A DNA stretch of 52,258 nt from a virus. Lineage: Duplodnaviria > Caudoviricetes. The stretch spans positions 1-52,258 of IMG/VR virus record IMGVR_UViG_3300018412_000021. The stretch is one strand, 5' to 3'. A program made the position numbers and the translations under genes. Below the pieces are notes generated by a model. That model did no database searches. It saw nothing but the letters and a program-made list of their open reading frames with translations, and had not been told where the DNA came from. Below, piece after piece: positions 4,658-36,173 of this stretch; position 1 is the stretch's first letter, and each line of letters opens with the position of its first letter.

Positions 4658-7279
4658 ATGGCACAGCAACAATCCCCCTTTTTAGAAGCAGCTTACGGGT
4701 GGAATTTCGGTGAAGGTGGTTGGAATTCAGGAATGGATCAAAACCTTCTCAAATTCTCCTTCATGTTTGACCGCAATGTGGATAGTATTGTAGCGTCCTT
4801 GCCAGCAGCAGTAAACGGACAAGCGCACTACCTTACAACAGATAACCGCCTATACTTTGCGGTAGGGTCAACATACTTCAGCACCCCAGTACCTAAATGG
4901 TTTACGGTGTTTGTACGTTCTACGGGGCAAACACATCAATATAACGGAACATCCCTTGTTCAGATTGATAGTCCTGCACAACTAGATTCCCGTCTTGATG
5001 CTGTAGAACTTACCGTAGCAAACCTGGGTACAGCAGCTTTTCAAAGTGTTGAATTCTTTGCTACACAAGCTGAACTGGACGTAGTTTCCGCAAGTGCATC
5101 CAACTATACTGATGCTTTGAGGGGTGATCTTGCAGATCCGGCGAAGGGTTCGGCGATGGTTGCGTTCGGGCAGGGCAATGTTTCAACCGCACTCAGCTCC
5201 CGTGTTGTTCAGGTAGCCACCATCGCAGACCTTCGCAACCTAGAGCCTGCGTTTGATGGGCAGCAGGTTGAGTTGTTGGGACATACTGCTTCAGGGATCG
5301 GAGGTGGTATATTCTACGCCGACTACAATAGTGTCGCAGCTGATGATAACGGCGTTACGGTTGTCACTGTTGGCGGTAAGAGGTGGTTGCGGAGACTGGA
5401 CGGATTTGTTTCTCCCACGATGTTCGGTGCTATCGGTGATGGTGTTGTTGATGACACCGCACCTGTTCAGTCTTCCGTAATTTCTGGTAAGTCAGTTTTA
5501 ATCCCAACGGGTGACATCTACCGACTCACTGGGATGGTTGATGTTCCTGATGACGTGGAGATTTACGGAGCAGGTGAGATATATGTGGATCAGAACCCAT
5601 ATATAAGAGCGTTGAATTTACGCGCGGGATGCAGGGTTGACGGTGTTAAATTCCGTGGTCGTAGCTCCGCTACTGCAATGTCTGAGGGAATAGGTGGAGG
5701 ATACAGGGGCGTAGCTATATCTGCGTCCAATTGCGATGACGTGCGGGTAACTAACTGCAAATTTTACAGTTTTGTGTCCAACGCAATTAATGTTGGAGCG
5801 GGCATTGTTGGGTTTGGCTACTCAAATAATATGGCTGTTACAGACTGTTACTTTGATGACAGTAATGATGGGTTCTTCGATATTGAATCCAGCTACTTTA
5901 CTGGAGATTGCGTATTTAGCAGAAACATTAGCTATTCCAACAGCGATGTTTTTATCGGTATATCGTCAGTAGGCTCTACGACTAATGCGCCAGAAACCGA
6001 AATAAGCGCGGTATCACATCACGTCATCTCTGACAACATCCACATAAAGCGAAGAGGTAAATCCTTACCATCTGGTAGAATGATGGGCCGACATGCCATA
6101 TCTATTCACTATACAGAGGGTAAATCTTACGCAACTATCACCGGCAATATCTTTGGAGTGTGCAGCAGGCATGGCGTATACATGCGAGGAAATGAGCCCG
6201 TTGACCCCAAGCCCCCGATTGGGCCAAATATCGTTGCAAACAACTTTCTCATTTACTGTGGAAATGCTTTAGACGACCCTAGTAATTATCATAGCGGTAT
6301 AATGCTCGAAGTGAACACTCACACTGTCGTCACCGGGAACCACTTTTTCAAATCAGGATATACTCCTACTGGCAACCCAGCAGCGGCTGATGCTTACGAC
6401 ATATCAACTACCCGTGGGACTCAATATGTAACTATTACAAACAACATGATGCGTGGGGCAAAAAATGGCGCTATTTATCTGAATATGTCAGTTCCTGGCT
6501 ATACCAGTAGGCAAATTATAATCAGTGAAAATCAAATTGCCTCTAATGGTTTTGGTATCTTCGTTGGAGTGCATACCGGCGCTGTCGATTGCAGGGACAT
6601 AAAAATAACAGGCAACATTATTCAGCTACTTAGCACAACGGCTATGGGCTTTTCTAATTTCAACTTTGGCATTGGTTTTGAATTACAAATCGGTCAATCT
6701 AACTCTTTAGAAATCACAGGCAACACTGTCACTGGTTTAGGTAAAACTAACGGACAGTATGGTTTGTGTTTGAGAGGAAGTGCTCCCGGCTCTATGGAGT
6801 CAACTGCAAAAGTTCATGGGAATACTTTTATAAACCTTTACCGAGGATTTGCGAGCTGGAGGGTGACTAGCGGGCCTTCAGGAATTGAGTATGTTTACCA
6901 CAAAGCATGGGGCGTTGATACGCGAGTAAAAGATAACACATTCCAGAACTGCGCTGAAGCACTCTTCGCTGCAAAAAATGCAAATAACGCTCTGGCGTTC
7001 GTTGAGCCAAGCAACAAGTTTATCGGGTGTGACTCAACGTCAATATCAACAGTTGTTGACGTAAACTCGACCGTTGTAATTGGTGAAGTGTCGGGTGTTA
7101 ATGCGTCCGGTGTAGCAAACGTAAACCTAAGGGTAACAGCACCCCCATCATCCGAAGCATATTCTGCCGGGGATAGTATAGTTAACCCAGCGCCAACAGC
7201 TGGTGGATATATGGGCTCTGTTTGTGTTACCGCAGGCAGTCCCGGCGTCTGGAAAAGTTATGGCAGCATTAGCGTCTAA
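4658..7279 (+). CDS. Tailspike / putative polysaccharide depolymerase (right-handed beta-helix)
   Basis: FGAIGDGVVDDT pectate-lyase-like start, many I.GN repeats and a C-terminal GYMGSVCVTAGSPGVWKSYG. ATG at 4658. Confidence 0.8.
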   Translation: MAQQQSPFLEAAYGWNFGEGGWNSGMDQNLLKFSFMFDRNVDSIVASLPAAVNGQAHYLTTDNRLYFAVGSTYFSTPVPKWFTVFVRSTGQTHQYNGTSLVQIDSPAQLDSRLDAVELTVANLGTAAFQSVEFFATQAELDVVSASASNYTDALRGDLADPAKGSAMVAFGQGNVSTALSSRVVQVATIADLRNLEPAFDGQQVELLGHTASGIGGGIFYADYNSVAADDNGVTVVTVGGKRWLRRLDGFVSPTMFGAIGDGVVDDTAPVQSSVISGKSVLIPTGDIYRLTGMVDVPDDVEIYGAGEIYVDQNPYIRALNLRAGCRVDGVKFRGRSSATAMSEGIGGGYRGVAISASNCDDVRVTNCKFYSFVSNAINVGAGIVGFGYSNNMAVTDCYFDDSNDGFFDIESSYFTGDCVFSRNISYSNSDVFIGISSVGSTTNAPETEISAVSHHVISDNIHIKRRGKSLPSGRMMGRHAISIHYTEGKSYATITGNIFGVCSRHGVYMRGNEPVDPKPPIGPNIVANNFLIYCGNALDDPSNYHSGIMLEVNTHTVVTGNHFFKSGYTPTGNPAAADAYDISTTRGTQYVTITNNMMRGAKNGAIYLNMSVPGYTSRQIIISENQIASNGFGIFVGVHTGAVDCRDIKITGNIIQLLSTTAMGFSNFNFGIGFELQIGQSNSLEITGNTVTGLGKTNGQYGLCLRGSAPGSMESTAKVHGNTFINLYRGFASWRVTSGPSGIEYVYHKAWGVDTRVKDNTFQNCAEALFAAKNANNALAFVEPSNKFIGCDSTSISTVVDVNSTVVIGEVSGVNASGVANVNLRVTAPPSSEAYSAGDSIVNPAPTAGGYMGSVCVTAGSPGVWKSYGSISV

Positions 7280-11694: not shown

Positions 11695-12585
11695 TTATTC
11701 ACAAGCAACACAATTATCTTTACTTGCTTGGATTCCAGCCTTTGAGTAGATGTAGTACAGACCGAGAATCTTCTCACTACGAATAGCATACTCATGCACC
11801 TTGGCAATGTACCCTTCGTCTTCTCCAGCAGAAAAGAAAAGGTTGAGCGATTGCCATTGGTCTAGGTAGTCACCTCTGGCCTCAGCTTGCCGTAGAACAG
11901 CAAACTGGTCAATCTCAAATGCTGTCTTGAACCAAGTCTTCTCTTCGTCTGTAAGCCAAGAAACCCCTTGAACACTCCCCATAGCGTCACGAACTTCTTC
12001 GATGTTCTTCTTACTGTACACACCCTTCTCTTTCATCAGAGAGAGCAAGTGTGGGTTTACACGATCAACTTCACCCCCTGCACTACGTTGTGTATACACC
12101 ATAGCAACATCTGGGCTGATACCTTCAGACACACCACCCATAATGAGGGAGCTTGATTTCGTGGGAGCTACGGCCATTGTGTGGCTGTTAGCCCTACCAT
12201 ACCCTTTACACCACTCAGGTTCACCCCACTGTTCAGCACTCCACTTAGTAGCCTTCTCAGCCTCTTCTCGGATGTGTTTGAAGATAGTCCGGTTTAGTGT
12301 GTAAGCCTCCAACCCCTCGAACGGAATACGTTTACGTTGGTACAAAGAGGCAAGACCACACACACCAAGTCCCAAAGCCCTACTCTTCCTCGTAAATGCT
12401 ACAGCTTTCTCAAGACCGTGAATGTTCTTAGCTCGTTCAATAAATTCTTGAGCCACACAATCCAAGAACACCGTAGCTACAAACACAGCATCCGTATCCT
12501 TCCACTCATCCCAAAGGTCTACATTCATACTGCTCAATACACAAGTGTATGTGTAATCTTTACTAGAGTGTAGTGTAATTTCGTT
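11695..12585 (-). CDS. nrdA: Ribonucleotide reductase alpha subunit, exon 2
   Basis: It begins NEITLHSSKDYTYTCVLSSMN and contains RALGLG, AVAPTKSSS, DQWQSLN, LYY and the C-terminal CVACE. Confidence 0.92.
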   Translation of the reverse strand, partial: NEITLHSSKDYTYTCVLSSMNVDLWDEWKDTDAVFVATVFLDCVAQEFIERAKNIHGLEKAVAFTRKSRALGLGVCGLASLYQRKRIPFEGLEAYTLNRTIFKHIREEAEKATKWSAEQWGEPEWCKGYGRANSHTMAVAPTKSSSLIMGGVSEGISPDVAMVYTQRSAGGEVDRVNPHLLSLMKEKGVYSKKNIEEVRDAMGSVQGVSWLTDEEKTWFKTAFEIDQFAVLRQAEARGDYLDQWQSLNLFFSAGEDEGYIAKVHEYAIRSEKILGLYYIYSKAGIQASKDNCVACE

Positions 12586-12817
12586 CAGTTGTGTTCAATA
12601 CAGCTCGCTACACTATACCAGTTCTCTTATGAACTTCTGCATGTCCCCATGCAGCTCAGACTATATCATCACCAGTTGGTGCTCACCGCTTCCACTCGCT
12701 TGAGTGTACTCCCTTTCGGGATAGTCGTTACACGTTCCTAATAAACCAGGCTTCGCACGGGATTAACTGTTCTAGTCTTCCCCCGTTTTCAATGAGTTTT
12801 AATTGTGCTGGCACTTA
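12586..12817 (-). ncRNA. Group I self-splicing intron (232 nt, no ORF) in nrdA
   Basis: P1 is AATTGTGT/GCACAATT with a U.G pair at the 5' splice site. P/Q/R/S-like elements are AAAACGGGGGAAG, AATCCCGTGCGAAG, GTAACGACTA and GATATAGTCT, and the intron ends in G. Removal restores the frame AQLC|NEI. Confidence 0.92.
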
Positions 12818-13615
12818 ACACAATTGGGCTGCTTTCACATCAAGGTTATGGTCTACATACCATTGAGGACGTTTACGGTTTGCCTTATCTGGAAAGAAGA
12901 GATAACCCTTCCCTGTAATCATCTTCACTTTGTTCATCTTCTGGAATCGCTTCAGGGCATCTTCATCTCCAGAATCCATCTTCTCTGTATCAGAGTCGTG
13001 CCAGTTCCAACCGATGTTATTACCGTCAGGGTGTTGCTCAAGATGATTAGCCACTTCGTAGAAGTCTCCGTGAGAGATTGGTAAGTATCCTGCCCAACTA
13101 CCTCTTCGACTTGTCCCCTGTACAACATACTCCATGTCCTTCTGCACCCCTTGGATGATAGGAAGGACACCGCTACTCTTACCACCATCACTAATTGGTG
13201 TACCACGAGGGCGAATATCACCGAGATATCCTGCTGTACCAAAACCATACTTGGTCAAGATAGCCGTTTCATGCTTGCTTGTATAAATCCCATCAATCGA
13301 ATCAGGGAAGTACGATCCAGCGCAACTGACGGGCAAACCACGAGACGTTCCAGCATTCGCTAAGATGGGGGTTGATAAGCTCAACCATCCTTTCCACATA
13401 ATGTCAAAGAAACGGTCTTTCCATACAGCAGGGTCTGGTGTGTGTGCAGCCATAGTAGCAGCAATGCGTTGATACTGTTCTTTCGGGTTACTCGCTTGGT
13501 AAAGGTACTTCTCCTTAAACAACTGCCAACTGCCTGTACTCCAATGGAGGGGCATCAACCCCTCAGCTTGTAGTTTCTTTCGCTCTTCACTAAGTTTGTC
13601 GTAAACACTGCTCAT
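12818..13615 (-). CDS. nrdA: Ribonucleotide reductase alpha subunit, exon 1
   Basis: STPILANAG..RGLPVSC and QGTSRRGS motifs; ends AQLC. ATG at 13615 overlaps the nrdB stop. Confidence 0.92.
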
Positions 13616-14607
13616 TCTTCTAAATTCCCCCAAGTAAACCCATTAGCATCCCAATTACGAACATACTGATTACCTTGACTATTAAAGAAGTCTTGTGCAG
13701 CATATCCGTTAATACCTTTATAAAACCAAACAGCTACAGGGTTGTAGTCAACTTTATACAGGTCTTCATAACCCATATTGCGAAGACACAAGTTAATACG
13801 ACTTTGTGCAAAATGCTCAAGTTGGGTGTCAGTAATCCCTTCAATACGCCCCTTCTCAAAGATTTTACGAATAATTACTTGCTCGTGTTCAAATACCTTG
13901 TGGGCTGCTTTGTAAACATCTTCTTTCAGCTTTTCTTTGTAGTCCTCATCAACCTCACCCACTTGTTCTTTCTCTGCAAGAAGTGTACGGAACAACCAAG
14001 CCGCTGCCTCAGAGTGAAGAGCCTCGTCTCGGCTTGAGAAGTTGATACCACTCACTACGTTCAACAGCTTATTCTTCCCTTGTTGCTGGAAGTGCTTCAA
14101 GAAAGCAAACGATGAATAGAGGACAGCCCCCTCACCAAACACAAAACCACCTAAAGCTCTCAAATCATCGTCTTGATCTAGCACAGACTCTAGGTAGTCA
14201 ATACGCTGTTTCAACTCAGGGTCGTTGATATAACTATCGTAGAACTCATCTGTTGCAATACCAAGCTCTTCGTTCAAAGTCTTGTAGAAGAATAGGTGAC
14301 TAGCAAACTCAACTGCACCAAACAAAGCAGCCATTGGTTGAATATCGGCAGGTCGGGGGAACTTCTTCATTACAAAGTTCAACCAAAACTCATCGCCAAT
14401 AATCTGTTCGTATTTGGAAAACAGCTTTAATGTGGTGATAACACCATGACTCTCTGCTTCAGTCATATTCACCAACATATCTTGCTTATCCTTAGCCACC
14501 TTAACTTCAAAGTGGGGCCAGAACACCTCAAGCTGCTTATTCATGTAATCAACAGCTTCGGGGTAGTCCACTGTAAATGTTGTTTTGGGTGTTTGGATGC
14601 GTACCAT
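13612..14607 (-). CDS. nrdB: Ribonucleotide reductase beta subunit
   Basis: Diiron motifs EFASH..FY, EGAVLYSSF and RDEALH; C-terminal DFF. Confidence 0.92.
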   Translation of the reverse strand: MVRIQTPKTTFTVDYPEAVDYMNKQLEVFWPHFEVKVAKDKQDMLVNMTEAESHGVITTLKLFSKYEQIIGDEFWLNFVMKKFPRPADIQPMAALFGAVEFASHLFFYKTLNEELGIATDEFYDSYINDPELKQRIDYLESVLDQDDDLRALGGFVFGEGAVLYSSFAFLKHFQQQGKNKLLNVVSGINFSSRDEALHSEAAAWLFRTLLAEKEQVGEVDEDYKEKLKEDVYKAAHKVFEHEQVIIRKIFEKGRIEGITDTQLEHFAQSRINLCLRNMGYEDLYKVDYNPVAVWFYKGINGYAAQDFFNSQGNQYVRNWDANGFTWGNLEE

Positions 14608-15002
14608 CAGTATTCCTTATTCTTTTCTTGTTTTAATACAGCTTTAGCAGTTTCTTCATTCTGCCATGTTTTATCAGCACACCCTGTACGACCAATCTGT
14701 GCAAGTTCTGCTCGTAGTTCAGGGTCTTTAATACAACTGCGTTTGTTCTCCCAAGAACATAGCTCACTCTTCAGCCAGTCAGAATCTACACGTTCCACAC
14801 CTTGCACTAATGGGCCTGTAAAGACAAAAGGTTTGTCTTCATAAGGACGATGAGATACAGTTTCTACATCATAGGGAAGAGAAGTATCAATCCCAGCATC
14901 ATAGATAATCTTTTCAAATGTTTCTTTGTCATTCTCTTCCACAGCTTTCTTGAAGGGTGGATATTTCATTAGGATATAAAAAGAGATGTTTTTATTTATC
15001 AT
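14607..15002 (-). CDS. Hypothetical protein
   Basis: Coupled between thyX and nrdB by overlapping start and stop codons. Confidence 0.65.
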   Translation of the reverse strand: MINKNISFYILMKYPPFKKAVEENDKETFEKIIYDAGIDTSLPYDVETVSHRPYEDKPFVFTGPLVQGVERVDSDWLKSELCSWENKRSCIKDPELRAELAQIGRTGCADKTWQNEETAKAVLKQEKNKEY

Positions 15003-16642
15003 TGTTGTTCCTCATTCATAAGTTCTTCTAAGAATAAGAAGTGTTCCATCAAAGCTGGTTTAACTTGCCGTGCAAGATACACATGCTCTTTCTGAGTAAC
15101 ACCTTCATCGTCACGCACCATCAACCAAGTAATCCAACTACGAAGTGTACCGTTTGCATACATATAGCTCATTGTGTTACCTTCAGGAAGGATGACACGA
15201 GCACACTCTTTAGCAATGCCCACGTCTTTGCTAACAGCCCAACTATAGTGTTCGGTAACTAGGTCAATCACTTCTTGTTGACGACGATCCCATTCTGCTT
15301 GTAGTTCTTCGTCATCAACGTCAATACTATTCTGACGGTTCTTGTAGTCTTGGAGTCGAGCTTCACGGAGCATAAACTCCTGAGCCACGGCATACCGTTG
15401 ACTGTTGTGGGTGACAATCCCATTAGCCACGTAATTGTGACTGTTGTGGTCAACCTCCAAATCATAGGTTTGCATCGGCCCACAACTAACAATCGACACG
15501 ACTCTAGAATAATTTGGCGACTCAATAAACTCAGACGCAGTTTTACTCTGATGACACTCTTTACACAAAACTTGGAGGTTGTCTAGGTCAAAAGCAGCAT
15601 CTGGGTGAGATTTTACAGGCAATATGTGGTCAATCTCCAAACTGTCATCAGCGCAGCATTCGACACATTGATTGCCAAATCGCTTAAGGATCAGGTTTCG
15701 GTATTTGTGTTGCCAATCCCATACAGTCTGCCGGAAGCACCGACCTTTACCCCCTGCCCACAAGTCAGAATCTTCCCCCTTTCTGGAAGATTCTCTCATT
15801 TTTTCTCTAGTACCCTCCGCATGATGTTTGTTGAACATCGGTTGTTGGTCGCTAGGAAGCCCTTTGTTCCATATCTGCGTGTACTGCGCCACTTCCTTTT
15901 TGGAAAATTGCAATCCGTGGATTCTCAACCATTTCCTAATAGTATGCGTGGTTACTCCAGCGAGTGTTGCAATCCCCTTTAACCCACGTCCGTCTTCAAT
16001 GCACTGATTTTTTGCGGCAGCAAGCCATTCCTTGTGTTGATAACACGGAACACCGTTGATTCCAACCTCATCCCCAACAGAAATCTCTGCTAGTCGCTTA
16101 AACCCGTCCCTTGTTAAAAACTTATGCTCACTCGTGGCTTTTATCTTCCGACCGGACGCCAGTTTGATTTCATACACAGGTTTACCCCCTGTGTCAAAAA
16201 CCTCAACTATCGGTGCGTACTTAAATTGCCTAGTGTCTTCATCATACACTTTGACATTCGGCAGTGCTTCCCCCGCCACGTATGCTGAATACAAATCCTC
16301 TATAGTCACAAGACCGCTGTCGGTTTTTACAACTGAGTCCCCTGCAATACAGAACTCTTGGAACTTCATGCTAGAATGTCGTAACACTTGACGTGCAATG
16401 TCGCGTGGAACTTCAATCTCAACCACTACGTTCACCATATCGAACACAGACCAGTGAGAGTGTTTCATGCAATACTTCAGAAGACCGGCTGCTGTATCAA
16501 AATTAGTTTGGTTCTGTGGTGAAGACACTCGTGCTGCGTAAGAAACGATACCTTCGCTATCAGGGATGAAGTCTACACTAGGGGTTGTAACACCAATCAC
16601 ACGAGCTTTGATCTGATTAAAATACTTCTCATTAAACTCCAC
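14999..16642 (-). CDS. thyX: Flavin-dependent thymidylate synthase precursor containing an intein
   Basis: ThyX motifs YAARVS, HWSVF, RQVLRH..MKFQEF|SQRY, KECARVILP, GTLRSW and TQKEH. Confidence 0.92.
   Translation of the reverse strand: MEFNEKYFNQIKARVIGVTTPSVDFIPDSEGIVSYAARVSSPQNQTNFDTAAGLLKYCMKHSHWSVFDMVNVVVEIEVPRDIARQVLRHSSMKFQEFCIAGDSVVKTDSGLVTIEDLYSAYVAGEALPNVKVYDEDTRQFKYAPIVEVFDTGGKPVYEIKLASGRKIKATSEHKFLTRDGFKRLAEISVGDEVGINGVPCYQHKEWLAAAKNQCIEDGRGLKGIATLAGVTTHTIRKWLRIHGLQFSKKEVAQYTQIWNKGLPSDQQPMFNKHHAEGTREKMRESSRKGEDSDLWAGGKGRCFRQTVWDWQHKYRNLILKRFGNQCVECCADDSLEIDHILPVKSHPDAAFDLDNLQVLCKECHQSKTASEFIESPNYSRVVSIVSCGPMQTYDLEVDHNSHNYVANGIVTHNSQRYAVAQEFMLREARLQDYKNRQNSIDVDDEELQAEWDRRQQEVIDLVTEHYSWAVSKDVGIAKECARVILPEGNTMSYMYANGTLRSWITWLMVRDDEGVTQKEHVYLARQVKPALMEHFLFLEELMNEEQQ
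15404..16351 (-). mobile_element. Intein (316 aa) with HNH homing endonuclease
   Basis: It starts CIAGDSVV, has block B ATSEHKFLT and ends YDLEV..HNYVANGIVTHN before Ser+1. The interior has CxxC..IDH...NLQVLCKECH (HNH) and a NUMOD3-like HHAEGTREKMRES. Confidence 0.92.
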
Positions 16643-29833: not shown

Positions 29834-30367
29834 TCAACTTCCCCTCAATTGGTTTTCTGTTGGTATGACTCCCCGACTAGCGAAGATTTCTTTAATGTCA
29901 CCCAGCACAATTGGTTTGTAATTAACATTCTCACAGCTTACACTGAAATAGTGAGGGTTGTCAACATTATTTGAATGCGTGTGGCCGTGTACGGATAAAG
30001 CCCTGTAAAGCTCATGCGGATGGATAGGCGCATGAGACAACCAAAACCCCCAACGCTTTGTGATGCCATAGAATTGAACATTATCGAACTGTTGACAATA
30101 AGGCACCAGAGTCTTGTGGTCGTGATTACCTAAACAAATCACCACTTGGTTGAAGTATTTAGAATACACATCAATTCTCCAGAGAGCTTCGGGTCCGAGG
30201 ATAATATCACCAAGCAACCAGATGTTATCTCGTTTACTCTTACCACTTAGAATATTCTGGTGGATGGTTTCGTTATGCTCTTCTAGCGAAGAGAACTCAG
30301 TTCTAAATTTCTCATGGATACCGCGATGGTCGAAATGTGTATCACCAATAAACCATACTTTACTCAT
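29834..30367 (-). CDS. Calcineurin-like phosphoesterase
   Basis: GDTHFDH, LLGD, GNHD, SHAP and HGHTH motifs. Confidence 0.85.
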   Translation of the reverse strand: MSKVWFIGDTHFDHRGIHEKFRTEFSSLEEHNETIHQNILSGKSKRDNIWLLGDIILGPEALWRIDVYSKYFNQVVICLGNHDHKTLVPYCQQFDNVQFYGITKRWGFWLSHAPIHPHELYRALSVHGHTHSNNVDNPHYFSVSCENVNYKPIVLGDIKEIFASRGVIPTENQLRGS

Positions 30368-30399
30368 TTAACTTACCTCCTCACATTTGATTTTCAAAC

Positions 30400-30429
30400 A
30401 CTATACCACGTTTAATCCAAGCCTGTCAA
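30400..30429 (-). promoter_or_regulatory. sigma70-like promoter for the leftward replication operon
   Basis: TTGACA-N18-TATAGT with a TG extension. Confidence 0.7.
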
Positions 30430-30462
30430 TGCCTAACCCGAACAACCTGTTTTACAACCTAC

Positions 30463-30491
30463 TTGACTTTTCAGGTTCTATTTGATACAAT
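30463..30491 (+). promoter_or_regulatory. sigma70-like promoter upstream of the structured RNA
   Basis: TTGACT-N17-TACAAT with TG immediately upstream of the -10 box. Confidence 0.75.
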
Positions 30492-30497
30492 ACTAAA

Positions 30498-30936
30498 GTA
30501 AATCCCAATCTCTAACCGTAAGGACATTGGTTGGGTGAGCACAGAGTTTGTCGGGACTACTACGTTTGGCTCTGTGTGATTTGTGTAAAAGGAATGGTAC
30601 TAGACACAACCGTAGCTCGAAATCTGAAATCGGTGTACTGGCACTCGTGTAAGGAGTGAATGACAGATAGGAACAGCAGCTTACCATGATCTGTTCCCCA
30701 CCCAAGAAGAATCCTACAACTTCTTGGGAGTCCTGTAAAGGATAATCTAACCTCGTCTGAATTGGGATGGCAGAAATGCTTCTGTAGGTCAGTCAGTGGG
30801 AAGATTGGATATGAGCCTATATTCTCTCGAAGCAGTGTTGGCCGCAGGGTTGACAGGGGTAGATTCATAGTCTATCTTATACTGTATGGGAGGGTATAGG
30901 GTAGCTCTATCCAAATCTTCCTGAACTGATTGGGAT
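30498..30936 (+). ncRNA. Putative large structured non-coding RNA (about 440 nt), family not recognised
   Basis: The ends pair (ATCCCAATC 30502-30510 with GATTGGGAT 30928-30936). There are more than ten internal stems with G.U pairs valid on the + strand, a dedicated promoter and no + strand ORF. Confidence 0.7.
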
Positions 30937-30975
30937 GATTATACTTATAAGTAATATTTATTAGGAGAGGTAGAA

Positions 30976-31509
30976 GTGAAATTATATGAATACATGATAA
31001 TGAGAAATGGTGTAGGTAAGAACGGAGGTATAAAGTCCTCATTGTCATCAAAAGAGTTTCAACTTTTAGGAATCAACAATTCCAAAGGTTGGGCTAGGAA
31101 GAATAAGAATCTAGAGATTTCTGATACTCTGTTAAAGCAACTTCTTGTGTTTGCAAATAACAACAAAATTCAAAATAGCAAATCATTACAACGATTACAG
31201 ACTAATTTTAGTTCAGCGGATAATAAATTCTTGTATCTTATGTATAATGACACCAATAAAATCCATAAAATAGGGATAAGTGTTGATCCTCAAAAGAGAT
31301 CAAGGGCGCTATCTTCTTCCAGCGGTTTAAGGGTCACGTTGAAGGCTATGTGGAAAGTCGATCTGTATGCAAGGGATGTTGAAAGGTCTTTACATCACAG
31401 CCTTAAGGATTTCCGCACACTTGGAGAATGGTTTGACTTGACTTCTATTGAGACTGTAGTACCCTTAGTAGAAAGTCTCATACCTTGTCAGTTTAAGAGG
31501 ATAGTCTAA
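30976..31509 (+). CDS. GIY-YIG superfamily (T5orf172-like) nuclease domain protein
   Basis: FLYLM...KIGIS.DP.KR...L...VE..LH...GEWF; AGGAGAGG RBS and GTG start. Confidence 0.8.
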   Translation: MKLYEYMIMRNGVGKNGGIKSSLSSKEFQLLGINNSKGWARKNKNLEISDTLLKQLLVFANNNKIQNSKSLQRLQTNFSSADNKFLYLMYNDTNKIHKIGISVDPQKRSRALSSSSGLRVTLKAMWKVDLYARDVERSLHHSLKDFRTLGEWFDLTSIETVVPLVESLIPCQFKRIV

Positions 31510-31571
31510 GGAGGTTGCTACCCAGAATTTACTCACCAAAGGATAGGATAATATAAATACTATAATACCTA

Positions 31572-31600
31572 TTGACATAACACCCACTTACTAATACCAT
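31572..31600 (+). promoter_or_regulatory. sigma70-like promoter
   Basis: TTGACA-N17-TACCAT. Confidence 0.65.
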
Positions 31601-31629
31601 CTCTACATTACTTACCAAAGGAGGTGCTT

Positions 31630-33249
31630 ATGCAATTCAAACCAACAGAAGAACAGGTTGCAATCGTAGAGCTTGCAAAGCAAGGGAAGGATGTGGTTAT
31701 CAACGCCTATGCGGGGTGTACTAAAACCACCACTTGTGCTTTGGTAGCTCAAGCTATTGTAAAACCATCACTCTATCTCGCATTCAACAAAGCAATGGCT
31801 GAAGAGGCTAAACAGAAAATGCCACCCCATGTGGAGTGTCGTACATGGCACAGCATTGCTTATCAGGAAGTGGGGTTAGACTATCAACACAAACTCACAC
31901 GTCCTCGTGGTGCCTATCGTAATCTGGCAGGCACTGGTGGTGAGATTGCCCGATACTTCAAGATTCCCCCTATGGAGTTGTCTAAAGATCAAGGATATGT
32001 TGGTAGTGTCATGTTTGGTATCGCTGTCAAGAAAACTCTTACACGGTTTGAGTATTCAGATTGTGTTGAGATTACCAAAGATCACATAGACCACTCTGTA
32101 CTGAAGAAATACAATGGCGCTGTAACCACCAAAGACAAGAAAAAGTTTGATAACGTGGTTTTGCACTACGCCAAGAAGCTGTGGGAACTGCGTACTGACA
32201 TGAACAGTCCTGTGTTGATTACACACGACACCTACTTGAAGATGTACCAATTGAGTAATCCAAGGATTGAAGGTTATTCAGTCATATATGCTGACGAGCA
32301 TCAAGACACCAGTATGACAATGAATGATGTGTTGAAGAAACAGAAAGCACAGAAGATTGTGGTTGGAGACATATTCCAGAAGATTTACGGGTTTAGGGGT
32401 AGTGTAGACGGAATGAGTATGTCTGATGGTAAACTGATGACTCTGAGTAAGTCTTTCCGGTTTGGTGATGAAGTGGCTAAAGTAGCTAATAGTATCATTG
32501 GTGAAGGACGTGTAAGGGGTTGTGATGTAAACAGTGAGGTCTGTACAGAGCATCCTGAAAGCTACAAAGGAAAGACGTTGCTGTTTCGTACCAACGCAGC
32601 TTTGTTCTCTAAGCTGACTGTGTTGTTATCAGAAGGGTATACAGTGAATGCTGAAGCAGATACAACGGAGTTTCGTCGTCTGCTGGAGAGTTGTCTATAC
32701 TTGAAGCGTGGTGAGAAACGTAAAGTGAAGCATGAAGATATTCTTCCTTATGAGGGTTGGAAAGAACTGAAGTTGTCGATTAAGAATGGTATAGTGGATG
32801 GGAATATTGCTATTGTTTGTACACTGATTGAATCTGGTGAGTATCTGGCTGTGTTGGGTGCTATGGATGATATTACCAAGTCGGACAATGCCGATGTGCT
32901 GCTGACAACGGCACACAAAGCCAAAGGACGTGAGTGGTCAGAAGTTGTAGTTGAGAACGATTTCCCTGACTACACGAAAGAAGGGGTGAATCCTGAAGAA
33001 CGTAATTTGTTTTATGTAGCCTGTACACGAGCTATTGACAAACTGTACTACACACCGATTGAGGAAAATTATGGTGATGAGATGATCGCATTCAACTGTG
33101 ATGTTCAAGATGGGAAGACGTATATTCAGAACCAAGACCACTTCCGCGACATTCTGAGGGGCGAAGTCAAGAGGATGGGACTACACCTCACAGACTATGA
33201 ACTGGATGATTTTGAAGCTGGAGAGTATCACCAAAACAAGATGTATTGA
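31630..33249 (+). CDS. UvrD/Rep-like SF1 helicase
   Basis: AYAGCTKTT, YLAFNK, DEHQD, VGD..QKIYGFRG, LSKSFRFG, TAHKAKGREW and YVACTRA motifs. Confidence 0.9.
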   Translation: MQFKPTEEQVAIVELAKQGKDVVINAYAGCTKTTTCALVAQAIVKPSLYLAFNKAMAEEAKQKMPPHVECRTWHSIAYQEVGLDYQHKLTRPRGAYRNLAGTGGEIARYFKIPPMELSKDQGYVGSVMFGIAVKKTLTRFEYSDCVEITKDHIDHSVLKKYNGAVTTKDKKKFDNVVLHYAKKLWELRTDMNSPVLITHDTYLKMYQLSNPRIEGYSVIYADEHQDTSMTMNDVLKKQKAQKIVVGDIFQKIYGFRGSVDGMSMSDGKLMTLSKSFRFGDEVAKVANSIIGEGRVRGCDVNSEVCTEHPESYKGKTLLFRTNAALFSKLTVLLSEGYTVNAEADTTEFRRLLESCLYLKRGEKRKVKHEDILPYEGWKELKLSIKNGIVDGNIAIVCTLIESGEYLAVLGAMDDITKSDNADVLLTTAHKAKGREWSEVVVENDFPDYTKEGVNPEERNLFYVACTRAIDKLYYTPIEENYGDEMIAFNCDVQDGKTYIQNQDHFRDILRGEVKRMGLHLTDYELDDFEAGEYHQNKMY

Positions 33250-35534: not shown

Positions 35535-36173
35535 ATGGTGTGGTCTGGTAAAGGTCGATCTGGTGTTGGTGACACTTCCATTCAGGGAACATGGGAAGAT
35601 TGGGATGGGCTTAGTCCTAATGGCAGACAATACAAAAACAAAGTTACACAAGAGACTAGAAACTTGTCTGGTGCCGATTACTGGCACACTAGAAAAGCAG
35701 ACTATCCACGACAACTGCCAGATGAATCTAAGATGTTTCTAGCTAATGGAAAGGCTAATCTGGCTATGTTTGCAGAAGACGACACACCAACAAAGAAAAA
35801 GACAACCAGAAAAACCCTAACAGCCTATGATAAAGTGATGCAGGCTGATAGAGCCTTTGATAAACTGGAAGAATTATCAGAGCAACTAGATACTCAGTAC
35901 CTTAATCTTGAAATTGACGATGAAGAATATAGTATTGCTAGGGATATACTTGATGACAAGATGGTAAGAGCTTGGCATAAAGTGTGTAAAGTGAAAGGTT
36001 GGGATAAAGAACCAGAAGAAGATTACCAACCAATAGAGCCTGCCTATCAACAAACAAATCATAATAAGAACATTCAATTGGAGAAGCCTGATAGTTTCTT
36101 GTATGATGTATTCAACGGATTGGATGACACCAATTTGTTCAAACAAATGTATTGTAAATTGAAAGGAATTTGA
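35535..36173 (+). CDS. Hypothetical early protein
   Basis: 212-aa ORF with an AAGGTG RBS. Confidence 0.65.
   Translation: MVWSGKGRSGVGDTSIQGTWEDWDGLSPNGRQYKNKVTQETRNLSGADYWHTRKADYPRQLPDESKMFLANGKANLAMFAEDDTPTKKKTTRKTLTAYDKVMQADRAFDKLEELSEQLDTQYLNLEIDDEEYSIARDILDDKMVRAWHKVCKVKGWDKEPEEDYQPIEPAYQQTNHNKNIQLEKPDSFLYDVFNGLDDTNLFKQMYCKLKGI

Follow-up and report, generated by a model that had tools for sequence, protein, structure and literature searches.

A structured RNA of about 430 nt, belonging to no catalogued family, in a small group of aquatic phages

GOLLD and ROOL, large and intricate non-coding RNAs carried by phages and bacteria, are often found beside tRNAs; ColE1 RNA II is a pre-primer of plasmid replication, in which an upstream RNA segment pairs with template DNA; a lariat-capping ribozyme lies upstream of an endonuclease open reading frame (ORF); and the c4 RNA of P1/P7 is comparable to the CI RNA of P4. 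P4 CI RNA arises by processing of an untranslated transcript and base-pairs with two sites on either side of it, seqA upstream and seqC downstream (PMC4825925). The element reported here lies on the plus strand of a 52-kb virus record (Duplodnaviria; Caudoviricetes; IMG/VR record IMGVR_UViG_3300018412_000021; completeness estimate 57%), which was analyzed over its whole length of 52,258 nucleotides (nt) and is referred to as the window. It encodes a structured RNA of ~430 nt that falls in no catalogued family; that the RNA is real, under selection, and part of a new family appears to us very likely. Like GOLLD and ROOL, it is large, intricate, and phage-borne, contains pseudoknots and conserved unpaired blocks, and has no known function. 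Unlike them, it is smaller, matches no Rfam model at E up to 10, and has no adjacent tRNA gene in any of five RNA-bearing genomes (none anywhere in the window, none near the RNA in G001, G002, G004, and G005).

Covariance-model searches used Rfam 15 (4227 models, presumably including group I and II introns, RNase P, tmRNA, 6S, GOLLD, ROOL, HEARO, OLE, raiA, and phage pRNA), both at gathering score and at E up to 10. The window as a whole gives a single match at gathering score, a group I intron at 12637–12848. At E up to 10, the region 30350–31050 returned a single chance lncRNA match (15.5 bits, where the gathering score is 80), and no match fell inside the RNA in three further loci (L039, L045, and L066); across these four homologues, including the window, the RNA thus matches no Rfam 15 family, as had been supposed from the letters of the sequence. 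No prior description was found in the literature searched or in Rfam 15. A catalogue of 8495 short candidate RNAs (29–151 nt) has been compiled from IMG/VR (PMC10690425), and it could contain fragments of this RNA.

Homologues were identified by scanning sequence collections with patterns made from invariant blocks. These scans returned eight loci (L039–L046), of which six lie on viral contigs and two on contigs from metagenomes; together with the window they make nine loci and eight distinct sequences, L044 and L046 sharing an identical RNA. Each genome searched holds one copy. The carriers form a small group of aquatic phages of ~50 to 90 kb. DNA identity of the RNA to the window is 71–85% among homologues, compared with protein identities of 23–26% for the primase-helicase and 25–75% for most other shared proteins in the same genomes; the RNA is conserved beyond the phages' replication proteins. 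Conserved sequence spans from UCUAAC (30511) to CUGAUUGGGAUG (30937) in alignments A1–A3, and one 22-mer (30613–30634) is identical in the window, L039, L040, L041, and L042. Contigs from four public sequencing runs were also aligned to the stretch, and contigs from three others (X5, X6, and X22) match only its core, from 30539/30547 to 30722/30795, with unlike flanks; for these three, no sequence differences were reported in 30607–30642. In all, 23 runs contain part of the stretch, most at small shares (0.05–0.16) that are uninformative on habitat or spread; nor can anything be concluded from the parts of the stretch that the aligned contigs leave uncovered.

The sequence-only reading of this DNA had proposed a novel structured non-coding RNA of ~440 nt, running rightward from a point of transcriptional divergence, and the absence of an Rfam match, a strand-specific fold, and covariation in eight homologues all bear this out. 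The plus strand of 30498–30936 folds with a minimum free energy (MFE) of -158.3 kcal/mol (z -5.43; 0/100 dinucleotide shuffles as good), as against -110.7 kcal/mol (z -1.49; 7/100 shuffles as good) for the minus strand; a repeat run gave z of -5.13 and -1.92, respectively. Against shuffled controls, then, the plus strand is clearly better. Consensus helices were derived from the alignments with RNAalifold, and further complementary column stacks were scanned for tertiary pairings. Counts made on alignment A3 (8 distinct sequences, 117 pairs) find standard pairs in 96.2% of cells, compared with 84.0% in shuffles (0/500 reach the observed value) and 35–45% with slid partners. Changes on both sides affect 59 of the 117 pairs, as opposed to 28.3 in shuffles and 11–17 with slid partners, and so the covariation that had been proposed as a check is present. 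The contig of run X22 adds four further both-side changes of predicted pairs (Table 1).

The scan for tertiary pairings found two contacts. The loop CCUACA (30713–18) forms a 6-bp pseudoknot with UGUAGG (30783–88), fully paired in all sequences through four sequence versions, with both-side changes in 5/6 pairs. A 4-bp loop–loop (kissing) helix joins UAAG (30650–53) to CUUA (30680–83); all four of its pairs change on both sides, it is likewise 100% paired, and it occurs in the versions UAAG/CUUA, CAAG/CUUG, and GGU/ACC. Two weaker long-range candidates, AAAGGA (30588–93) with UCUUAU (30875–80) and UUUGUC with GAUAGG, were not adopted.

The RNA has two domains: a 5′ domain of ~260 nt, built as a string of hairpins that are tied together by the loop–loop contact and the pseudoknot and interspersed with long invariant unpaired stretches, and a 3′ domain of ~125 nt that forms one long branched arm. 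The P1 shape recurs in the MFE structure of 5/8 homologues with differing, covarying stem sequences, and its caps in four of five homologues are of the GNRA type (GUAA, GCAA, GCAA, GAGA). All 13 pairs of hairpin Pa are kept in every sequence, six of them through both-side changes, which also affect 3/5 pairs of Pe and 6/9 pairs of Pf. The Pb/Pc block (30583–30634) is the most conserved part of the RNA. The variable hairpins Px, Ph, and Pi are found in the single-sequence folds of 8/8 homologues. In the 3′ domain, helix 14 has both-side changes in 7/12 pairs, the pairs at the very base of the arm (outermost GGAAG/CUUCC) are invariant, and the arm ends in two hairpins (30836–55 and 30855–80).

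Table 1. Coordinates of the RNA, its parts, and its neighbors, in window positions unless another locus is named
Feature	Position	Strand	Description or evidence
Metallophosphatase gene	29834–30367		First gene of the leftward operon
Divergent promoter	30400–30429	-	TTGACA, 18 nt, TATAGT; serves the leftward operon led by the metallophosphatase gene
Promoter of the RNA	30463–30491	+	sigma70-type: TTGACT, 17 nt, TACAAT, TG before -10
RNA	30498–30938	+	Alignments, fold z -5.43, pair counts
Hairpin P1	30504–30535	+	Stem 30504–10/30529–35, 5x5 internal loop UCUAA/ACAUU, 2-bp stem, GUAA cap
Hairpin Pa	30539–30577	+	Helix 1; conserved apical sequence UUUGUCGGGACUAC
Hairpins Pb and Pc	30583–30634	+	Helices 2–4; Pb 30583–86/30604–07, Pc 30609–12/30631–34 and 30617–19/30625–27
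X22 double change	30584, 30606		T>C with A>G
X22 double change	30586, 30604		T>C with A>G
Hairpins Pe and Pf	30642–30697	+	Pe 30642–46/30654–58, Pf 30670–78/30687–97; loops pair together
X22 double change	30643, 30657		A>T with T>A
X22 double change	30646, 30654		C>G with G>C
Pseudoknotted center	30701–30788	+	Px 30701–09/30720–28, Ph 30730–43, repeat R1, Pi 30769–80
Repeat R1	30743–30771	+	AAUCUAACC, 8 nt, CUGAAUU, hexamer GGGAUG (30764–69)
3′ domain	30798–30921	+	Helices 13–18; arm 30798–811/30908–921, 30816–28/30888–900, 30832–36/30881–85
Repeat R2	30912–30938	+	AAAUCUUCC, 7 nt, CUGAUU, hexamer GGGAUG (30932–37)
A+T-rich spacer	30939–30975	+	Contains the ribosome-binding site of the next ORF
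T5orf172/MUG113 endonuclease-type ORF	30976–31509	+	GIY-YIG-like; Pfam MUG113 4e-11, T5orf172 6.7e-7
ORF behind RNA, L039			CapR-domain protein
ORF behind RNA, L043			GIY-YIG-like homing endonuclease; remnant in L044 and L046
ORF behind RNA, L045			Endonuclease VII/HNH-like protein

Every hairpin that the sequence-only reading listed is present in the sequence, and the comparative data sort them. Pairing is kept through both-side changes in the hairpins at 30539/30569, 30583/30604, 30642/30654, and 30670/30691, in TCCT-GTAA-AGGA, and in the CCTATATTCTC/GAGGGTATAGG helix; that at 30701/30720 appears in the single-sequence fold of all eight homologues. For GGAAGATTGGATA/TATCCAAATCTTCC, the inner GGAUA/UAUCC covaries, while the outer part is invariant and thereby neither supported nor refuted. 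The listed GCAGAA/TTCTGT overlaps a strand of the pseudoknot, and its comparative form is GGCA-GAAA-UGCU at 30769–30780. The proposed closing helix (30502–30510/30928–30936) did not survive: its 9 bp exist here but are not conserved, and relatives pair the same 5′ bases locally, 30504–30510 with 30529–30535 in P1. In the window, P1 uses bases assigned by the sequence-only reading to the closing helix, which is therefore specific to this window.

At six base pairs, all eight sequences have G-U, which would be an A-C mismatch if read on the other strand; these invariant pairs, the fold asymmetry, and the promoter together fix the plus strand as the RNA. The stretch had been called free of ORFs, which is too loose, given that antisense frames of 70 and 102 aa overlap it in the window. 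Such frames (70–114 aa) occur in 5/8 distinct loci, but none of at least 70 aa is present in the other three, and the alignment is rich in indels of 1–2 nt, not multiples of three; for both reasons protein coding by the stretch appears unlikely.

The near-consensus promoter claimed at 30463–30491 was confirmed (10/12 consensus matches, extended -10), with a predicted RNA start near 30498. It stands back to back with a second near-consensus sigma70 promoter on the minus strand (30429–30400). In 8/8 distinct homologues, the RNA is preceded by a sigma70-like hexamer pair that matches the consensus at 8 to 11 of 12 positions, also at loci whose upstream genes run in the same direction; its -35 element is often AAAGCTTG, and the distance from the end of the -10 to the conserved UUUGUCGGGA is 50–63 nt in 6/8. 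Six loci (L042, L041, L046, L043, L045, and L066) share AAAGC or AATGC ahead of the -35 (AAAGCTTGNNN), which may be a promoter signature of the lineage. Beyond the other end of the RNA, the 40 nt past R2 are 72–90% A+T in 8/8 homologues, compared with 56–63% across their loci.

R1 and R2 share one plan—AAUCU..CC, 7–8 nt, CUGA(A)UU, and a purine-rich hexamer—and form direct repeats of 12–13 nt that bracket the 3′ domain, R2 marking the 3′ end of conservation. The hexamer is the same in R1 and R2 in 9/9 loci, through five versions that differ by lineage (GGGAUG, GGAAUG, GGGAAG, AGGAAG, and UAGGAG). Because the five versions are always equal in the two repeats, at least four hexamer changes have been mirrored between them, and chance is no explanation. 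The segment GGGAAGAU (30798–805) is able to pair with the AAUCU..CC of either repeat, and two consensus folds on nearly the same data picked different partners for it; the choice is undecided because the sequences involved barely vary. The repeats are compatible with four designs: a single recognition element could take both as its substrates or processing sites; a lineage-specific factor could bind at both; they could form a toggle between conformations; or, in a ColE1-like arrangement, the RNA of the upstream copy could pair with the template DNA of the downstream one.

Further copies of repeat sequence were seen in three places. The R2 core, GATTGGGATG, recurs exactly at 35598–35607 (+) of the window, where this third copy falls within coding sequence 4.7 kb downstream; chance alone would yield ~0.3 such 10-mers. 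In L042, its own version of the core likewise has a similar third copy in coding sequence (oriented position 6651), in a context that shares nothing with that in the window. In the leader of L041, ~60–50 nt upstream of UCUAAC, the segment that makes up its R1 and R2 (AUUGGGAAG) is nearly repeated, in direct orientation, as AUUGGGAAA.

In 5/5 genomes (G000, G001, G002, G004, and G005) 1.5–4 kb separate the RNA from the primase-helicase gene, and the RNA points away from that gene, usually sitting at or near a strand switch. The ORF directly downstream is of endonuclease type, or a remnant of one, in 6/9 loci. That in the window (30976–31509), which also matches the PHROG homing endonuclease, is probably a free-standing homing endonuclease and a neighbor of the RNA. 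The remaining three loci have no endonuclease ORF directly behind the RNA; G002 has an HNH gene as its third ORF. Such variety is the pattern expected of selfish free-standing endonucleases settling by a conserved target, and the succession of different selfish endonucleases next to one very conserved sequence argues against the RNA being a specific regulator of the next gene. The arrangement recalls HEARO and omega RNAs, which also lie next to a nuclease gene and have a short variable segment by constant sequence. It differs from them in that at least three unrelated endonuclease types follow the RNA and 3/9 loci lack one directly behind it; no IscB or TnpB family was found among the neighboring ORFs at Pfam E up to 0.001–0.01, and no Rfam model matched. 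Retron RNAs and DRT-type template RNAs, the latter with repeated template ends, differ in their association with a reverse transcriptase, of which none (PF00078) was found in the five RNA-bearing genomes, where controls responded. RtcB ligase was likewise absent from these five genomes, and the only ORF common to all RNA-bearing genomes and missing from four RNA-less relatives is the antisense pseudo-frame within the RNA itself.

To the right, between 31500 and 39700 (+), dense near-consensus TTGACA-17-TAnnnT promoters precede many small ORFs (at 31572, 33246, 34376, 34810, 35083, 36213, 36279, 36626, 37154, 37664, 38037, 38675, and others). Their density suggests an early region, and the cluster looks like one read by host polymerase.

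Beyond the nine loci the RNA was not recovered. No match was returned by blastn of 30380–30980 against 50,697 phage records, by nhmmer and blastn over 11 phosphatase loci and 26 primase-helicase loci, or by two pattern scans of 185,579 prokaryote genomes (0 matches), and the UvrD-type helicase, used as a query for related loci, found no relatives. A scan with the 3′ domain alone recovered only known loci; a covariance model of the 5′ core (167 positions), run over 36 related loci, found only the window itself; and BLAST over 22 related virus records gave one match, an already known locus. Judged by the primase-helicase, the closest phages in culture have Pseudaeromonas and Pseudomonas as hosts, and no match to the RNA was found in the collection that includes their records. 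Two relatives without the RNA have ORF-free stretches of 460–470 nt upstream of the primase-helicase gene that fold somewhat better than shuffles (L022:7608–8080, z -4.2 and -3.3 on the two strands; L038:7326–7787, -1.3 and -3.6), with no Rfam match at gathering score and none to a model of the RNA reported here. A third such relative has two tRNA genes (L027:2846–3025, minus strand) ~7 kb upstream of its primase-helicase gene and pointing away, in the upstream region where RNA-bearing genomes have the RNA at 1.5–4 kb.

The explanation we prefer, to which we give an even chance, is that the element yields an RNA that is made early, is complete in itself, and works in trans, be it a ribozyme or a molecule that binds or decoys a host machine, and that it is not a switch for the next gene. 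Host RNA polymerase would transcribe it rightward from its own sigma70-type promoter, which would make it the first product of a gene cluster rich in such promoters. Cleavage at the two identical repeats, or close to them, may free it from a long early transcript; it would then act as RNA, through catalysis or by engaging a conserved host machine, and would leave the next gene unswitched. Its partner is more likely to be a host component than a phage protein. This reading is favored because the core is conserved in the manner of a catalytic or binding core, because no phage protein co-occurs with the RNA, because inserted endonuclease genes are tolerated behind it, and because no tRNA or other known partner is nearby.

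Several observations weigh against it. No terminator-like site was found in 30300–31700, and the next ORF begins 38 nt past the RNA, so that a 5′ leader is conceivable. A discrete transcript is predicted from the sequence, the RNA-library evidence consisting of one 206-nt contig of run X22 that is possibly DNA carry-over; no cleavage motif was recognized at the repeats, and processing there is pure conjecture. By BLAST, the RNA is absent from 21/22 related virus records, six of them complete, and it is thus dispensable for the wider lineage. The family is also small, with eight distinct sequences in about three clades, such that the counts rest on few independent events.

A bolder version, which we regard as doubtful, would make the RNA a new class of catalytic or ligand- or host-factor-binding RNA, made first on infection: a self-processing ribozyme, or a decoy or sponge. 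In the former case the active site would take both identical repeats as substrates, releasing or circularizing the 3′ domain; in the latter, the sponge would be aimed at a conserved host machine or a defense signal. Few large RNAs have so much tertiary structure conserved, and to our knowledge all such classes solved so far are ribozymes, riboswitches, ribonucleoprotein cores, or self-assembling particles. That the RNA is phage-specific, probably transcribed first, better conserved than replication proteins, and repeatedly accompanied by endonucleases points to a strongly selected function. The repeats, in changing together, offer a concrete experimental handle, and at ~140 kDa the RNA is big enough for cryo-EM.

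With no terminator behind the RNA and its discrete transcript only predicted, the main rival is a leader that remains part of the nascent early transcript and acts in cis for the whole operon, either on the polymerase transcribing it or on the fate of the transcript, through processive antitermination or stabilization and maybe by toggling the repeat pairings. We consider this possible, though well short of the trans-acting RNA in probability. The RNA always lies directly behind a promoter and in the same direction as the downstream genes, with no terminator past it and many sigma70-type promoters further on; GGGAAGAU has its alternative pairings with R1 and R2; and an operon-wide action would tolerate endonuclease genes behind the RNA. 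However, those same downstream promoters (31572, 33246, 34376, and onward) make a single upstream leader less necessary, and the alternative helices, 11 and 19, show both-side changes in 0/7 and 0/8 pairs. Known antiterminator RNAs are also far smaller than this one, which likewise counts against a leader.

Less probable still, and in our view unlikely, is a pre-primer like ColE1 RNA II, in which R1 would pair with template DNA at R2 and the persistent RNA–DNA hybrid so nucleated, lying at the A+T-rich stretch, would be extended by the PolA-type polymerase of the phage. The parts are similar: a promoter, several hundred nt of folded RNA, a G-rich segment upstream that repeats the origin-proximal one, and an A+T-rich stretch after the latter, with PolA and a DnaB-type primase-helicase both encoded in the window and the RNA pointing away from the latter's gene. 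A ColE1-like role had been guessed in the sequence-only reading, beside a protein scaffold or anti-defense decoy and a new ribozyme, and an upstream copy does covary with the 3′-terminal G-rich segment, its identity in 9/9 loci through five hexamer versions being what matching one DNA strand would demand; the two like G-rich segments (CUGA(A)UU plus hexamer) are nonetheless a resemblance of design only. GC skew adds nothing to the guess: cumulative extremes lie away from the locus in 4/5 genomes (within 1.7 kb in G004), and phage skew follows transcription. A+T-rich spacers before genes are ordinary, no antisense regulator was identified, and sequence and tertiary conservation are far stronger than a primer needs, with ~200 invariant or covarying core positions, the pseudoknot, and the kissing loop all superfluous to such a role. 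Since complete relatives with a similar primase-helicase have no such RNA, it cannot be the origin of those relatives.

An antisense circuit of the P4 CI or P1 c4 type, in which a processed piece of the leader pairs with R1 and R2 and controls downstream termination or translation, seems to us improbable. As in the P4 system, a structured leader RNA is flanked by two similar sites on one transcript, there seqA and seqC (PMC4825925), here the direct repeats around the structured segment. The window also has a hexamer-complementary leader segment, AUCCCAAU (-14.3 kcal/mol), and pyrimidine tracts occur as UCCCAA in G002 and as CUUCC next to R2. The present RNA is, however, several times larger and has no complementary "seqB" that tracks the repeats. 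In a matrix of leader–R2 duplexes, cognate pairs were best in only 2/8 lineages, and a cognate preference was seen for the window and G002 alone. No alignment column complementary to the hexamer follows its versions consistently, and the best internal complements sit at different places in different lineages, with no homologous-position site tracking all five versions. Across five genomes, no complement in trans or extra copy recurs, such hits being sporadic and near chance; complements of at least 10 nt were found in 2/5 genomes, at unrelated places. No Rfam antisense family matched, and the phages give the impression of being lytic, integrase and repressor not having been searched for.

We likewise disfavor, as very improbable, a degenerate or unusual self-splicing intron or other ribozyme traveling with homing endonuclease genes. 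Such an origin would fit a pseudoknotted core with GNRA loops, the endonuclease-type ORFs behind it in 6/9 loci, and the presence of a canonical group I intron elsewhere in the window. Yet the RNA has no exon context and interrupts no gene: it starts ~7 nt past its own promoter, the upstream neighbor lies on the other strand, the downstream T5orf172 ORF is complete, and so is the helicase ORF, with a Walker A motif near residue 30. RF00028, the Rfam model of group I introns, scores 64.3 bits on the intron elsewhere but has no hit within the RNA, and hence recognizes no conserved P3–P9 core there, at E up to 10, and the endonuclease families differ where they are not missing. Least credible of all is that the stretch is no RNA gene but a minus-strand protein gene or a set of DNA-level iterons, operators, or a cruciform: antisense frames do occur at five loci and a DNA-binding protein specific to each lineage could bind at the direct repeats, but those frames are absent from three loci and broken by short indels, the changes occur as complementary pairs, and invariant G-U pairs and the fold asymmetry indicate plus-strand RNA.

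Two further intervening elements were observed in the window. The canonical group I intron (minus strand) splits the gene for the large subunit of ribonucleotide reductase (nrdA); the ORFs on its two sides, 12815–13633 and 11695–12537, both match a single 577-aa ORF in G001. In addition, the thymidylate synthase gene ThyX at 14999–16642 (minus strand) is interrupted by an intein whose endonuclease domain is of the HNH type (Pfam Thy1, Intein_splicing, and HNH), while its homologues in G004 and G005, at ~220 aa, are apparently intein-free.

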